A DNA stretch of 64,000 nucleotides from Candidatus Omnitrophota bacterium (GTDB lineage Bacteria > Omnitrophota > Omnitrophia > Omnitrophales > JACQQS01), in NCBI GenBank assembly GCA_016206925.1, contig JACQQS010000062.1, positions 9,254 through 73,253 of the forward strand. The letters run 5' to 3'. A program made the position numbers and the translations under genes. Shown here one piece after another: positions 12,464 to 16,524 of this stretch. The notes below the pieces were generated by a model. The model searched no databases. It saw only the letters and a program-made list of their open reading frames with translations, and was not told where the DNA came from. Every line of letters begins with the position of its first letter. Positions within the stretch are counted from its first letter, which is position 1.

Positions 12464-14329
12464 CTAAACGAGTTTGCGAAGAGAAAAAGGTCCGGATTGC
12501 GATACTTCAAAGGATCGGGCGGTCAAGAGCTTCTGGAAACGTTCCCTGCCCTTGCCTTCAAGGCCCCATAAGTCGGAGCGTATGAATTCGGTGTCGAGCA
12601 AGATATGCGTGATTTCCCGCGAACGCAGCGCGGCGTGAAATTCCGAGGTGTTCGCGTTTAGCTCCAGCGCTTTTTCAAGCCACCAGCGCTCAAAAATAAA
12701 ATCGGCCCGCCAAGAGCAATCCAGATAATAAACGTAGTTTTTCATATTGACTAGATAAACTGTTTCCTCCACGCCAATCCGCTTATTGGCATCAAAATAC
12801 ATGACTAGACCCGGCCATTGCCGGATGAGATACGCGCTGCGCGACTCGGAACCGGCAAGATACGGCAGCGGTTGCTTTTGCAAGGATTCTTTTACGCCGG
12901 CGTGCAAATTGAATAAAAGAAGCGGGACAACTAGAAAAGAAAGAATATTTTTTCGCTTGGACTCCGCGATCCCAAACACCAGCAGAAAGCAGAGAACGGG
13001 TAAAATGGGGAATAGAAAGCGCACCTGCTTGGTAGTGAATGTCCAGTAGAAAAAAAAGAGCCCGGTAAAACAAAGAAGGGCTTTCAAGGGCGGGCGGATC
13101 GTTTTTTTCCACAGGACAATCGGAATCATGAGAAAAATCGGCCCGAGGACGCCTTCGTAGAATCGGGGCTCATTGAACCGCGCTTTAAGAAAAACCAGAA
13201 CAGGGCCGAGAATGTCGTCTAGTAACGGAGTTCCACCCGAGCGTGTTCCGAATGAGGCCAAGAATTGAATATAGAGCTGCGCACGATCCAAATCCCAATT
13301 TAGGCCGCTCGAAAGCTGTTTGCCGAAAAATGGAAATGGAAAAAGCGGCCAGCCCGTCCAGAAAAAGTTGCGAACCAGATAAGGTGCGAATACAAAACCA
13401 AAGCTTAAAATGATTGTTGGAATGTGGCGGGCGTAGCGCTTTTCTTTTCGTGCGAGCTGGTAAATGAGAATTACGCAGATGATCAGACCGGCAAACGAAA
13501 TACCCGTGTATTTTGTGGATGCCGCGGCCCCGGCAAGCGCACCCATGAGAATAGCGTAGGATACCCGCGGAGATTCTAGAAACTGCAAAAGACAGACAAG
13601 CGTTATGAAGGAATAAAATGTGAAAGTCATATCGACATAGGCGAGAGGCATTACTTGCATGACGGATGGGACGGTCAGAAAAACAACCGTTGCTAGGAAG
13701 CAATAAGTTTTCGGGAGAAAACTGCGCGAATACGAGTACAGAGCTAGAGCCGTCAGGAACCCGAACGAAACATGATGCAGTTTTGACGCTATTTCAGCAA
13801 TAGTTTCATTGAATATTCCCCTCGCCCACAGGAAAAACATTTCACCCAATTGGGGGAAATAGGCATAAATATTGTCTTGGAAGAGCTTGAAACCTCCGCT
13901 CCGGAAAATTTCTTTTGGAACCGCAAGATGGTAAATCAGCTCATCCCGGTCGGACGGAGGGAGCATCGAAAACACAATGATCCATAAACTGTAAAGCAAG
14001 AAAAATACCGCAAAAAGTGCGTTTCGTCGGGAGCCGAGTTTCCAGGTGCTCGCGATAAGCCAAGGCAGAAAATATCGTGTAATCTCTATGACGGCGAATA
14101 CCGATATTATAGTGAGCAACACCGCCAGCGATGTTTTTGAAATTAATTGCGTACACGTCATTAACAATAAACTGTGAGAAAGAATCAGTGAACCAATCCC
14201 TATTCGAAGACAAGTATCGAGGTTCGGAATTTCAAAAATGCTTTTATTGCGAACAGTCATGCGGCCAAGGAAGGCGCTTCCTGAAATTACAATGGCGATG
14301 AATCCTAAAGCCAGGGTCAGATGCAGCAT
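12464..14329 (-). CDS. GT-C fold glycosyltransferase (PMT/ArnT-like, PMT_2-type) with C-terminal periplasmic domain
   Basis: 621 aa. About 11 TM helices in the N-terminal 440 aa. First-loop acidic motif ...PPSDRDELIYHLAVP (DE motif of the GT39/GT83 families). Soluble C-terminal domain of ~170 aa. Confidence 0.7.
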   Translation of the reverse strand: MLHLTLALGFIAIVISGSAFLGRMTVRNKSIFEIPNLDTCLRIGIGSLILSHSLLLMTCTQLISKTSLAVLLTIISVFAVIEITRYFLPWLIASTWKLGSRRNALFAVFFLLYSLWIIVFSMLPPSDRDELIYHLAVPKEIFRSGGFKLFQDNIYAYFPQLGEMFFLWARGIFNETIAEIASKLHHVSFGFLTALALYSYSRSFLPKTYCFLATVVFLTVPSVMQVMPLAYVDMTFTFYSFITLVCLLQFLESPRVSYAILMGALAGAAASTKYTGISFAGLIICVILIYQLARKEKRYARHIPTIILSFGFVFAPYLVRNFFWTGWPLFPFPFFGKQLSSGLNWDLDRAQLYIQFLASFGTRSGGTPLLDDILGPVLVFLKARFNEPRFYEGVLGPIFLMIPIVLWKKTIRPPLKALLCFTGLFFFYWTFTTKQVRFLFPILPVLCFLLVFGIAESKRKNILSFLVVPLLLFNLHAGVKESLQKQPLPYLAGSESRSAYLIRQWPGLVMYFDANKRIGVEETVYLVNMKNYVYYLDCSWRADFIFERWWLEKALELNANTSEFHAALRSREITHILLDTEFIRSDLWGLEGKGRERFQKLLTARSFEVSQSGPFSLRKLV

Positions 14330-14424
14330 AATGATGTATCGGCATAGAAAGGTTTCGCGTTGAACGAAGTCCGATGCGCAGGGAAAAATAACGCATGGTT
14401 TTCCAGAAGCGGTTCGATAAATTT

Positions 14425-14482
14425 GTCACCCCCGCGAAAGTGGTGGTCTAGTACACTGGATTCCCGCTTACGCGGGAATGAC
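14425..14482. repeat. second copy of the REP-like palindromic element (GTCACCCCCGCGAAAGTGG ... CTGGATTCCCGCTTACGCGGGAATGAC)
   Basis: Read directly. 14456-14482 is the reverse complement of 4742-4768 with 2 mismatches in 27 nt. Lies in the divergent spacer between the two GT-C genes. Confidence 0.7.
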
Positions 14483-14497
14483 AATCATATTTTCGTG

Positions 14498-15985
14498 ATG
14501 ATCTTTACCCTGCTCGCTACTACGCTGGTTGGGTTCTACAGTTATTACAGCTCTTATTTTGTCCCCGCCATTCACGACGAAATGAGTTACCTTTTCCAGG
14601 CCAGAACTTTTCTCTTGGGGCGGGTTGTGAACCTAACGCATCCCGAGAGGCTTTTCTTCGACGCCTACCACATCATTAATGAAGGCATATTTGCATCGAA
14701 GTACTTTCCCGGGTTTGCGTTGACACTTGTTCCGTTTGAATTCTTTAAGATGCCCTATTTGAATCCTGTTTTCTTTTACGGCCTTCAGTTGGCGATCGTA
14801 TTTTTCCTGTCAAAAGAAATGTTTGGGTTAAGGACTGCGTACCTTGCCGTTCCGCTGGTTGCGTTCTCGCCGCAAATTGTAATTCAATCCTGTTTCTTAT
14901 TGTCCCATTTGAGTTCTGCCTGCTTTCTCCTGCTCTTCATGTATGGATTTGTCAAATGGCGGAAGCGGAAGTCGGGCAGAATCTTGTGGATTCTTTTCAG
15001 CGGTTTTTTTTGGGGGTTGGCATTTTTAACGAGACCGACGACCGCGGTGGGCATTGCATTTCCGATCGCCGTCATGATTTTGTGGTGCGCTTCGAAAGAA
15101 CGAACGCGAAGGACTTTCCAGGAAATGCTGATGTGGGGCGCGGTGGTTGCGTTGAGCATTGCCGCTTACGGCATTTACAACAAAGCCGTTACGGGTTCAT
15201 ACACCAAAACACCTTTTGAGCTGTATTCGGAAATACACGCGCCTTACCACCGCTATGGATTTAATACATGGGAGAAATATCGCGATGAAGCAAATGGTCC
15301 TCGGGTTGACCGGCGGATGAATGAATATTACCATAACCACAAGCTTCTGGACGGTTTCCTGATCGCGGGTGCGCGTCTAGGATTTTTTATCGAATGGATT
15401 TTTCCGGGTGTTGCGGTCGGGCTATTCTTTATTTTGATTTGGCTGATTGAACTCCGGGCGAAAAATCCGTGGCATTGGCCGATATTCTGCATTTTTCTTT
15501 CGTTGCAAGCAATTTATGTGCCGCATTGGTACCCCGGCCTTATCGGGTTTGGATCCAACTATCTTTATGAAGCGTCTGCGTTGGTGCTTATGGCCATTGC
15601 GGATACATTGGTCCGCGCGGTGGGAAATATTCCCTCGGGCAGGTGGCGGAGTTATCTTTTCGTTGGAGGTTTTTGTTTGGCCGTGAGTTCCGTTATGTTT
15701 CTGAATAGCACCAGTCAATGGGTGAGTGACGGCCGGGCGCTAAAGATATATGTGAACGGCATCGTCGAGGCGGCACATGCGGAAAAAGCCGTGGTTTTTG
15801 TCCGGTATGCCGAAACGCATAATCTGGATTGGGATTTGATCGACAACGTTCCAACCTTGGATAGTGCCGTTGTTTTTGCGCGGGACCGAGGCGCGGAAAA
15901 CGCAAAGCTCAAAAAGTATTTTCCAAATTACTCTTTTTTCATTTTTGACGAAAGCAGTCTTTCTCTTATTCCTCTCGCGCTCTGA
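14498..15985 (+). CDS. GT-C fold glycosyltransferase (PMT/ArnT-like), second copy
   Basis: Polytopic membrane protein with first-loop motif AIHDEMSYLFQARTF. The ORF track starts at 14360, but that leader overlaps the REP-like element. ATG at 14498 (MIFTLLATTLVGFY...) directly precedes the first TM helix. Confidence 0.7.
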   Translation: MIFTLLATTLVGFYSYYSSYFVPAIHDEMSYLFQARTFLLGRVVNLTHPERLFFDAYHIINEGIFASKYFPGFALTLVPFEFFKMPYLNPVFFYGLQLAIVFFLSKEMFGLRTAYLAVPLVAFSPQIVIQSCFLLSHLSSACFLLLFMYGFVKWRKRKSGRILWILFSGFFWGLAFLTRPTTAVGIAFPIAVMILWCASKERTRRTFQEMLMWGAVVALSIAAYGIYNKAVTGSYTKTPFELYSEIHAPYHRYGFNTWEKYRDEANGPRVDRRMNEYYHNHKLLDGFLIAGARLGFFIEWIFPGVAVGLFFILIWLIELRAKNPWHWPIFCIFLSLQAIYVPHWYPGLIGFGSNYLYEASALVLMAIADTLVRAVGNIPSGRWRSYLFVGGFCLAVSSVMFLNSTSQWVSDGRALKIYVNGIVEAAHAEKAVVFVRYAETHNLDWDLIDNVPTLDSAVVFARDRGAENAKLKKYFPNYSFFIFDESSLSLIPLAL

Positions 15986-15996
15986 ATCAAGAGGCA

Positions 15997-16032
15997 ATAA
16001 AAAAGCCAGGGTAACTTTCGCTACCCTGGCTC
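15997..16032. terminator. bidirectional rho-independent terminator between convergent GT-C gene and pilA
   Basis: Hairpin GCCAGGGTA-ACTTTCGC-TACCCTGGC (16005-16030), flanked by an A6 run on one side and TCTT on the other. Gives a T-tract on the minus strand for pilA. Confidence 0.55.
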
Positions 16033-16053
16033 TTGGCGGGCTTACTCGTATTA

Positions 16054-16524
16054 CTACCCTTCTATCGGAGTTCCTCCTGTAGAACCAGTTGCTGCGCAAG
16101 TAGCGCCACTGAATATCACGCCGGTCTGATCTACCGTGAAAGTGTTCACACCGGTTACGTTCGCTGTCACCGGTGCAGCTCTTACACAATATTGGTTGGT
16201 TGTCGCGCCAGCGGTCAGTACGAAATTGTATCCCTGCTTGCCCGATCCACTACCCGCGTTCGCAAGTACGCTGTCGATATAAGGTGGATTAGCGCTTGAT
16301 AGCGACGTTAGTGCTGCTGGATAAGTTGGCGTTGCTTGTGCCGCGCGGTAACTTTCCATCGCAGTGCTCAGTGTTCTCAAGGAACCCTTTGCAGCCGATT
16401 CGTTGGCGTTCAAGCGGGCACGCAGTAAGTTCGGAATGGCAATGGCAGCGAGTAGCCCGATGATCGCAACAACGATCATAATTTCTACGAGAGTAAACCC
16501 CTTTTTGTTCATCCTGGTTAACAT
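16054..16524 (-). CDS. pilA: type IV major pilin (PilA-type), Ser/Thr/Gly/Ala-rich C-terminal half
   Basis: MLTRMNKKG|FTLVEIMIVVAIIGLLAAIAIPN is a canonical type IVa prepilin leader with Glu+5. 156 aa. Confidence 0.85.
   Translation of the reverse strand: MLTRMNKKGFTLVEIMIVVAIIGLLAAIAIPNLLRARLNANESAAKGSLRTLSTAMESYRAAQATPTYPAALTSLSSANPPYIDSVLANAGSGSGKQGYNFVLTAGATTNQYCVRAAPVTANVTGVNTFTVDQTGVIFSGATCAATGSTGGTPIEG

Follow-up and report, generated by a model that had tools for sequence, protein, structure and literature searches.

A pair of GT-C-type membrane glycosyltransferases beside a pilin gene in an Omnitrophota type IV pilus cluster

Pilin glycosylation alters pilus assembly, surface chemistry and the susceptibility of cells to pilus-specific phages. 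To our knowledge, its enzymology has been worked out almost wholly in a few proteobacterial pathogens, on the TfpO/PglL enzymes and on a single enzyme of the GT-C type, TfpW. The present analysis concerns a candidate glycosylation locus in a metagenome-assembled genome of Candidatus Omnitrophica, located on a stretch of 64,000 nucleotides of contig JACQQS010000062.1 (hereafter the window; all positions refer to it). The locus is embedded in a long type IV pilus cluster, encoded nearly entirely on the minus strand, and comprises a type IV prepilin gene (pilA) and the genes of two membrane proteins, here called GT1 and GT2. A preliminary description, made from the letters of the window, had read these proteins as GT-C glycosyltransferases and predicted, by analogy with TfpW and with protein O-mannosyltransferases (PMTs), that one or both of them O-glycosylate the pilin. 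The enzyme class assigned there is now strongly supported; for a pilus-related role the support is moderate in the case of GT1 and only indirect in the case of GT2.

Several described systems come close to this locus. The tfpW gene of Pseudomonas aeruginosa group IV strains (Pa5196/PA7) lies directly downstream of pilA, accompanied by tfpX, and its product relies on the DprE1/E2 pathway for D-arabinofuranose (D-Araf). PMTs (family GT39; yeast Pmt1-Pmt2 and Pmt4, actinobacterial Pmt) carry a D-E motif in the first luminal loop, use a polyprenyl-phosphate monosaccharide as donor and Ser/Thr residues as acceptors, and form homo- or heterodimers of paralogues. ArnT (family GT83) is a bacterial inner-membrane GT-C enzyme with undecaprenyl-phosphate-4-amino-4-deoxy-L-arabinose (L-Ara4N) as donor and lipid A as acceptor. 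TfpW is described as adding D-Araf oligomers to multiple Ser/Thr residues of the pilin from a lipid-phosphate-linked sugar, and as harboring a C-terminal periplasmic tetratricopeptide repeat (TPR) domain and a YX6PFX7P motif (bioRxiv 10.1101/2020.04.19.049825). A full-text literature search, incomplete in its coverage, retrieved no paper tying a PMT_2/GT-C enzyme to pilA beyond TfpW, and none on pilus glycosylation in Omnitrophota.

Fold, family and conserved motifs of GT1 and GT2

Both proteins match the Pfam family PMT_2 (PF13231) above its gathering score of 26.1 bits, GT1 with 35.1 bits and GT2 with 35.2-35.4 bits. Matches in NCBIfam stay below threshold (LIC_10190_fam, 32 bits against a cutoff of 100; Agl23, 26 against 126), and the source databases name both window proteins 'glycosyltransferase family 39 protein'. 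Structures were modelled with AlphaFold2 from 43 aligned homologues of GT1 and 25 of GT2, with a predicted local distance difference test (pLDDT) score of 94.4 and 92.0, respectively. When these models were compared with the PDB by Foldseek, every match at or below the significance limit (E<=1e-3) was a GT-C enzyme, 25 for GT1 and 28 for GT2. The top match of GT1 is ArnT (5f15; E 4e-8, TM-score (TM) 0.53/0.59), followed by STT3, AglB, PglB, ALG12/ALG9, AftA and Pmt4; AglB, ArnT and PglB lead the list of GT2, accompanied by ALG12 and the same GT-C set, and AftA/B and Pmt1/2 are also found among the structural matches of the pair. Transporters, of the major facilitator superfamily or other kinds, appear only at E>0.2 and with a probability of at most 0.15, and a non-glycosyltransferase identity of this sort is excluded. 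Neither the single sequences nor either family profile retrieved anything relevant among the PDB chains, so that the two proteins take their place among the solved GT-C enzymes by virtue of their fold.

Conserved acidic motifs are present in both families. In GT1 the motif reads 'DRDELIYHL', with D129 invariant and E130 conserved in at least 80% of the homologues; in GT2 it reads 'IHDEMSYLFQ' and follows the first helix, with D27 invariant and E28 conserved in at least 90%. The acidic pair that had been assigned to the first loop of both proteins is therefore real and conserved, and its position needs correction for GT1, where it follows the fourth helix. Conserved residues of GT1 comprise P124, D129, E130, Y133, H134, D233, K273, Y274, T275 and R437, and the alignment of its 43 homologues contains 28 invariant columns spread across the entire length. 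K273-Y274-T275 and R437 in GT1, like R179-P180 in GT2, are invariant or nearly so. Because the acidic motifs and these other residues of active-site type are so strictly kept, both proteins are likely to be catalytically active. Taken together, the profile scores above threshold, the confident models, the PDB matches confined to GT-C enzymes and the conserved acids make it close to certain that GT1 and GT2 are GT-C glycosyltransferases, as the preliminary description had proposed.

GT1 possesses three extra transmembrane helices before the canonical first helix. Its loops are alternately rich and poor in Lys/Arg (K/R), a pattern that fits 14 transmembrane helices (three extra and 11 canonical). 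According to this positive-inside pattern, the N-terminus, the D129/E130 loop, a long loop at residues 326-392 and a C-terminal alpha/beta domain (~484-621) would face the periplasm. A small C-terminal alpha/beta domain is also seen in the GT2 model. The idea that the extra helices of GT1 represent a fused GtrA-like flippase was dropped, as Pfam gave no such match even at E<=1.

The two proteins are remote paralogues. A direct BLASTP comparison detects no similarity between them, and their relation becomes visible only in profile-profile comparison: hhalign aligns residues 121-573 of GT1 with residues 19-480 of GT2 (97.9% probability, E 3.6e-13), an alignment that takes in the acidic motif, a K/R-x-T motif and the C-terminal alpha/beta domains. 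The lengths of both deserve a comment. For GT2, the open reading frame (ORF) as listed, and a database entry of 541 amino acids (aa), start at TTG 14360; an ATG at 14498, giving 495 aa, is the most likely start, since the homologues measure 506-523 aa and about 80 bases within 14360-14497 are absent from the nearest relative (contig L001). These bases (roughly 14391-14471) account for the apparent N-terminal extension of the ORF. For GT1, the database entry (P0001, 565 aa) spans just 91% of the ORF, and homologues align along the full 621 aa.

Linkage of the GT1 family to pilin genes

GT1 belongs to a very large family. A word-indexed search yielded 84 homologues, most of them with 98-100% coverage, and among 1.84 billion representative proteins a search with its profile recovered 6,743 clusters at E<=1e-30. 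No characterised member and no solved structure was found, and the source names seen were only generic glycosyltransferase labels; the Pfam labels precomputed in the database are PMT_2 and DUF8201. Some homologues, the window proteins not being among them, show weak matches to PF02366.

The genomic surroundings of the family were surveyed in one genome per GTDB species, giving 79 GT1 loci from Omnitrophota, Acidobacteriota, Desulfobacterota, Nitrospinota and Planctomycetota. The loci were translated in six frames and searched with hidden Markov models of GT1 and GT2, with the pilus proteins of the window and with a prepilin motif; a pilin gene at most 600 bp from the GT1 homologue was counted as adjacent. 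Adjacency was observed in 15 of the 79 loci, 4 of 19 in Acidobacteriota and 11 of 28 in Desulfobacterota, and in 13 of the 61 loci with at least 1 kb of sequence on both sides. The control set, consisting of loci of distant GT2-family relatives, showed none (0/76; Fisher p = 3e-5 against GT1). Beyond 2 kb from GT1, only two ORFs with a pilin motif were present in 735 kb of flanking sequence, and about 0.26 adjacencies would be expected by chance.

Three distinct gene arrangements underlie these counts. Four acidobacterial loci share the order pilB-pilT-pilC-pilS-pilR-pilA-GT1 on one strand, with gaps of 55-118 bp, and ten loci of the Syntrophales type have pilA and GT1 in divergent orientation. 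Desulfonema magnum (strain 4be13; positions 9315-19611 of locus L040, which corresponds to 6752582-6774333 of NZ_CP061800.1) carries pilA, GT1 and four genes for proteins with PMT_2 and TPR domains consecutively on the same strand. No more elaborate pilin/GT-C cluster was seen, and, the organism being cultured and its genome complete, it offers a practical test system. Both planctomycete loci (L063, L080, from metagenome-assembled genomes; ~9470-11640) place GT1 directly after pilR in a pilT-pilB-pilC-pilS-pilR cluster, where pilA would be expected. No prepilin ORF was recognised there, in L080 by reading the region up to 5 kb downstream and in L063 by an automated pilin-motif and phmmer scan only. 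The possibility that orthologues are never found near pilins, named beforehand as a point that would count against the prediction, is thus not borne out for GT1, in view of the 15 adjacent loci and the two planctomycete loci in which it follows pilSR. A neighbour-joining tree of GT1 follows phylum boundaries, so the linkage to pilins has persisted or arisen anew inside individual lineages; a single mobile cassette does not account for it.

Other neighbors recur as well. The commonest neighbor of GT1 is another GT-C protein, which occurs in one to four copies in Desulfobacterota, beside GT1 and pilA among other places; its combination of PMT_2 and C-terminal TPR domains is the one reported for TfpW, the only GT-C enzyme established as a pilin glycosyltransferase. 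A gene for a family-2 glycosyltransferase (~227-380 aa) lies within ~2 kb of GT1 in seven loci (L008, L013, L015, L019, L036, L069, L082), and another lies ~2.4 kb from GT2 in L084; as candidate polyprenyl-phosphate sugar synthases these neighbors are suggestive only. In the 21 loci from Nitrospinota (L049-L083), GT1 has a fixed setting, flanked by a radical-SAM protein (388 aa) on one side and a DJ-1/PfpI protein (200 aa) on the other, and pilus genes are absent up to a distance of 10 kb, which suggests a different or unlinked role in this phylum.

GT2 has a narrower distribution. Omnitrophota and comparable uncultured bacteria are the source of its close homologues (41-66% identity), which are encoded beside GT1, the two genes being divergent in L003/L007 and L084 and co-directional in L005. 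Placement of the pair between pilA and pilM was encountered in the window and in four contigs of one related lineage only (L001, L002, L086 and L087), which have an identical gene order and encode proteins with 52% (GT1) and 66-67% (GT2) identity to those of the window. The adjacency of the pair to pilA in the window is a lineage-specific arrangement, since none of the nine representatives from Omnitrophota or unclassified bacteria has a pilin near GT1, and the pair is found beside other genes elsewhere. Given its close homologues beside GT1 and its distant relatives without pilus context, GT2 is an Omnitrophota partner and paralogue of GT1 that is tied to GT1 and not to pili. The distant relatives themselves (L088-L165, ~620-650 aa) are common in the metagenome scan. 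Immediately upstream of them, a GDP-mannose 4,6-dehydratase gene was noted in 13 loci, and 17 loci have a gene resembling dihydropteroate synthase one or two positions downstream (both names assigned by eye).

The pilin and its surroundings in the window

The gene placement given in the preliminary description was confirmed in full: GT2 is encoded on the plus strand between GT1 and the prepilin, both of which are encoded on the minus strand (Table 1). The prepilin starts with MLTRMNKKG followed by FTLVEIMIVVAIIG, a canonical KKG/FTLVE cleavage and methylation site (the slash marks the cleavage), contains two Cys residues and has a Ser/Thr/Gly-rich C-terminal half ending in CAATGSTGGTPIEG. It matches N_methyl (36.7 bits) and TIGR02532 (34.9 bits) as well as the NCBIfam N-terminal models of PilA, GspG and ComGC. 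Its globular part consists of 24% Ser+Thr and of 52% Ser/Thr/Gly/Ala, in agreement with the richness in these residues reported earlier, for which the sequence quoted was correct. By hand count, Ser+Thr make up ~11% of the GspG-like pseudopilin of the same cluster; the pilins encoded beside GT1 homologues contain 16-37%, and many of them have a Thr-Pro end. The position of pilS and pilR directly upstream suggests that pilA encodes the major, regulated pilin.

Table 1. Positions of genes and sequence elements in the window; the pilus cluster is given in its order of transcription, followed by genes outside it
Feature	Position	Strand	Remarks
182-aa MshEN-only protein, adjoining the two ATPases below	20599-24562 (with the ATPases)	-	
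Two PilB-like ATPases in tandem	22290-24008, 20599-22290	-	Both with N-terminal MshEN; first in transcription order
pilC	19350-20567	-	After the PilB-like ATPases
pilS	18152-19345	-	Histidine kinase; Pfam 6TM_PilS, HisKA, HATPase_c
pilR	16764-18140	-	Sigma-54 activator and response regulator; Pfam Sigma54_activat (229 bits), Response_reg, HTH_8
Sigma-54-like element TGGCATG-N4-TTGAAT	16601-16617	-	~80 bp upstream of pilA start
10-mer TRTGCCGATM	16575-16584	-	51 bp upstream of pilA start
pilA	16054-16524	-	Type IV prepilin, 156 aa; between GT2 and pilR
G+C-rich hairpin, 10 bp	16004-16031	-	Followed by T-run (plus-strand A-run 15998-16003)
GT2	14360-15985	+	Listed ORF, starting at TTG 14360; likely gene 14498-15985, 495 aa
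GT1/GT2 intergenic region	14330-14497		
Perfect palindrome TTCCCGC-TTAC-GCGGGAA	14461-14478		In GT1/GT2 intergenic region
Conserved block CTATGCCGATA	14337-14346	-	In GT1/GT2 intergenic region
10-mer TRTGCCGATM	14337-14346	-	Just upstream of GT1 start
GT1	12464-14329	-	621 aa; heads same-strand run MerR, ParA, pilMNOQ
MerR-like HTH protein	12020-12268	-	82 aa; Pfam
ParA/MinD-like ATPase	10978-12006	-	Long low-complexity N-terminus; Pfam
pilM	9547-10974	-	Pfam
pilN	8972-9550	-	Pfam
pilO-like	8041-9009	-	Pfam
pilQ	6002-8044	-	Secretin; Pfam
10-mer TRTGCCGATM	6166-6175	-	~136 bp upstream of second pilC
Second pilC	4813-6030	-	After pilQ
Palindromes resembling that at 14461-14478	4777-4794, 4746-4763		Downstream of second pilC
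GspG-like pseudopilin	3933-4400	-	After second pilC
Large minor pilin	1794-3026	-	Last in the cluster's transcription order
Giant ORF, 2,690 aa	39917-47989	-	
LacI-family regulator	48268-49320		Alongside the ATPase genes below
AAA_14/DUF4143 ATPases, convergent	49503-52231		460 and 424 aa; between the giant ORFs
Giant ORF, 3,863 aa	52344-63935	-	

The pilA gene looks like a transcription unit of its own, with its own promoter and terminator. The sigma-54-like element upstream of it is conserved in L001 and would act as its promoter. A looser sigma-54 pattern, TGG-N10-GCW, showed no enrichment in the window, where it occurs 69 times against an expectation of 58, and was set aside in favor of the element conserved with L001. 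Between the convergent pilA and GT2 genes, a hairpin followed by a T-run can be read as the intrinsic terminator of pilA; its RNA folds with -30 kcal/mol (z = -4.0), a value reached by none of 200 shuffled sequences. GT1 and GT2 are divergent and share a short intergenic region. It contains a perfect palindrome, which forms part of the stretch of about 80 bases missing from L001, and, as shown by alignment, a block (CTATGCCGATA) common to the window and L001. Two similar palindromes occur downstream of the second pilC. The 10-mer TRTGCCGATM is present at three minus-strand sites, upstream of GT1, pilA and the second pilC; the sites of GT1 and pilA are conserved in L001, and the 10-mer might be the site of a shared regulator. 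Its apparent enrichment (3 occurrences against 0.42 expected) is not meaningful, the pattern having been derived from two of its three sites.

Further genes of the window merit mention. A small protein consisting of MshEN alone adjoins the tandem PilB-like ATPases, and the scanned ORFs of the window include none recognised as a retraction ATPase of the PilT type. The MerR-type HTH protein and the ParA/MinD-like ATPase form a pair whose position between GT1 and pilM is kept in L001, L002, L086 and L087; a ParA-like ATPase within a pilMNOQ operon might serve to position the pilus machinery. Two giant ORFs lie apart from the pilus cluster, the smaller of which has a single weak, sub-threshold Pfam match (UDPG_MGDP_dh_C, 24 bits). 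Both may encode large surface proteins and alternative glycosylation substrates. The region between them is occupied by a convergent pair of AAA_14/DUF4143 ATPase genes with a LacI-family regulator gene alongside.

Proposed activity and comparison with known systems

The interpretation favored here is that GT1 and GT2 are active, periplasm-facing GT-C enzymes that use a polyprenyl-phosphate monosaccharide donor to modify Ser/Thr residues of the major pilin, the acceptor being deduced from genomic context; the chances of its being right or wrong are judged to be evenly balanced. Both enzymes would reside in the inner membrane, with their catalytic sites facing the periplasm, and would transfer single sugars from a polyprenyl-phosphate-linked donor. 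In three-component GT-C systems, polyprenyl phosphate is charged with sugar by family-2 glycosyltransferases (PMC11127046). Here, too, a family-2 glycosyltransferase in the cytoplasm, its gene lying outside the window, would supply the donor, which would then be flipped across the membrane. The pilin would be modified before assembly, at a stage when its N-terminal helix is anchored in the inner membrane and its Ser/Thr-rich globular half is exposed in the periplasm near the GT-C active sites. GT1 would be the protein-directed, priming enzyme, the more likely of the two for this task since its family is large and repeatedly linked to pilA across phyla. GT2 might then extend the glycan, add a second sugar or use a second site, or pair with GT1 as Pmt1 does with Pmt2 and EmbA with EmbB.

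A number of observations weigh against the pilin as the target of the two enzymes. No adjacent pilin was observed in 64 of the 79 GT1 loci, including all 21 from Nitrospinota and all nine from Omnitrophota or unclassified bacteria. Most of the Omnitrophota keep the GT1/GT2 pair away from pili, beside genes for Maf, QRPTase, UvrB, PAP2 or a family-2 glycosyltransferase; as the pair is retained there next to housekeeping genes, it has no need of a nearby pilA. The 76 metagenomic loci of distant GT2-family relatives (26-31% identity) are all without GT1, a pilin or a pilus gene as a neighbor. Richness in Ser/Thr is widespread among pilins, and the pilins of the Syntrophales type are mutually related, so that their shared C-terminal Thr-Pro counts as one observation. 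The probable status of pilA as a separate transcription unit, with GT2 converging on it, is unlike the layout of a pilA-tfpW operon. The 64-kb window contains no gene recognised as a polyprenyl-phosphate sugar synthase or flippase. Finally, it is gene context that makes the pilin a plausible acceptor, and the argument for it is drawn from that source throughout.

Part of this pattern would also be accounted for by a general periplasmic protein O-glycosylation system, comparable to that of actinobacterial Pmt, which would act on a range of envelope or secreted proteins, with the pilin as one of many substrates or as none. Such a system would fit the conservation of the pair as a unit in Omnitrophota away from pilus genes and the sheer size of the GT1 family, most members of which are without pilin linkage, and the proteins of 2,690 and 3,863 aa in the window could be among its acceptors. 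The recurrent tight adjacency to pilA or pilSR in Acidobacteriota, Desulfobacterota and Planctomycetota is nevertheless hard to explain without a role in pili, and this explanation, although it has to be taken seriously, is considered unlikely. It is partly compatible with the favored interpretation, since such a system might have several substrates with the pilin as the chief one.

The acceptor might also not be a protein at all: lipid A or lipopolysaccharide core (as by ArnT), a side chain of O-antigen or exopolysaccharide (as by Gtr-type and GT136 enzymes) or peptidoglycan could be modified instead, with the proximity to pilA reflecting joint variation of surface structures or a rearrangement that arose by chance. 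For both proteins ArnT ranks first or nearly first among the structural matches, genes that act on lipids and glycans of the envelope (PAP2, Bac_transf, AsmA) adjoin the pair in L003, and the 13 distant GT2-family loci with GDP-mannose 4,6-dehydratase point in the same direction; three-component GT-C systems that modify glycans are moreover common (PMC11127046). However, neither single sequences nor profiles relate GT1 or GT2 to ArnT or to any solved GT-C enzyme, similarity in the GT-C fold does not tell acceptors apart, the window harbors no arn, gtr or O-antigen genes, and the adjacency of GT1 to pilA across phyla would be left unexplained, so that a non-protein acceptor appears rather improbable. 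A very small chance is given to a non-catalytic function, in which one or both proteins would assist the pilin as membrane chaperone or assembly adapter in the manner of TfpY and the GT-C fold would serve as a scaffold. Pilin accessory genes without modifying activity do occur next to pilA in Pseudomonas (PMC11841053), but TfpY-like proteins are small three-helix proteins and not GT-C enzymes (PMC11841053), and the catalytic acids and other residues of active-site type are invariant or nearly so in both families.

Glycosylation of the pilin by GT1 and GT2 can be extended to a broader, more doubtful but possible proposal: the GT1 family, which joins a PMT_2 core to three additional N-terminal helices and a conserved C-terminal alpha/beta domain and numbers at least 6,700 sequence clusters, might represent widespread and previously unrecognised pilin-directed O-glycosyltransferases that cooperate with variable GT-C partners (GT2 in Omnitrophota, TfpW-like PMT_2+TPR proteins in Desulfobacterota), and stepwise pilin glycosylation with polyprenyl-phosphate monosaccharides as donors might be common in environmental phyla. 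The phyla concerned would be Acidobacteriota, Desulfobacterota, Planctomycetota and Omnitrophota, the pilins of Syntrophales included. If this holds, pilin glycosylation by GT-C enzymes would extend to several major environmental phyla, and a very large family of uncharacterised membrane proteins would gain a function. It would matter for structural and functional studies of pili from Syntrophales and from related Desulfobacterota, whose filaments would have their surface properties changed by a coat of glycans, and would indicate a glycosylated pilus as part of the cell surface in the mostly uncultured Omnitrophota. The gene set of Desulfonema magnum renders the hypothesis of pilin glycosylation directly testable.

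Among the known systems, TfpO/PilO and PglL share with the proposed activity that they modify pilins; tfpO follows pilA directly, and its product targets a C-terminal Ser. These enzymes belong to the unrelated Wzy_C family, for which neither GT1 nor GT2 gave a match, and transfer an undecaprenyl-pyrophosphate-linked oligosaccharide en bloc. The cyanobacterial pilin glycosyltransferase Ogt, a soluble GT41 enzyme, was rejected as a relative. ArnT is the best structural match of GT1 and among the best of GT2 (TM 0.57-0.58), a likeness that is structural only, with no match to the NCBIfam ArnT model and no profile match to ArnT in the PDB; its lipid A acceptor differs from the pilus-gene context found here.

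With the PMTs, the two proteins have the Pfam clan and the GT-C fold in common. Neither matches PF02366 or a MIR domain even at E<=1, no PMT of known structure is detected in the PDB by their single sequences or family profiles, and a C-terminal alpha/beta domain takes the place of the MIR loop domain. Judged by these sequence comparisons, GT1 and GT2 are not bona fide PMTs of family GT39.

TfpW, too, is an inner-membrane enzyme of the GT-C type whose gene belongs to a pilin locus and whose acidic motif lies in a loop on the periplasmic side, and the predicted 11 canonical helices and periplasmic C-terminal domain of GT1 parallel its described topology. The analogy drawn in the preliminary description holds as a functional concept and not in the details. 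Pfam detects no TPR domain in GT1 or GT2, whose models show small alpha/beta C-terminal domains instead, a regular-expression search found the YX6PFX7P motif in neither, and the 64-kb window contains no tfpX-like or DprE genes. Where tfpW lies directly downstream of pilA, GT2 converges on pilA and GT1 lies 1.7 kb away beyond GT2; the window locus encodes two paralogous enzymes, and GT1 has its three extra N-terminal helices. By every feature tested, GT1 and GT2 are set apart from TfpW and are not its orthologues. In architecture, the PMT_2+TPR proteins encoded beside GT1 homologues in Desulfobacterota are closer to TfpW than GT1 and GT2 themselves.

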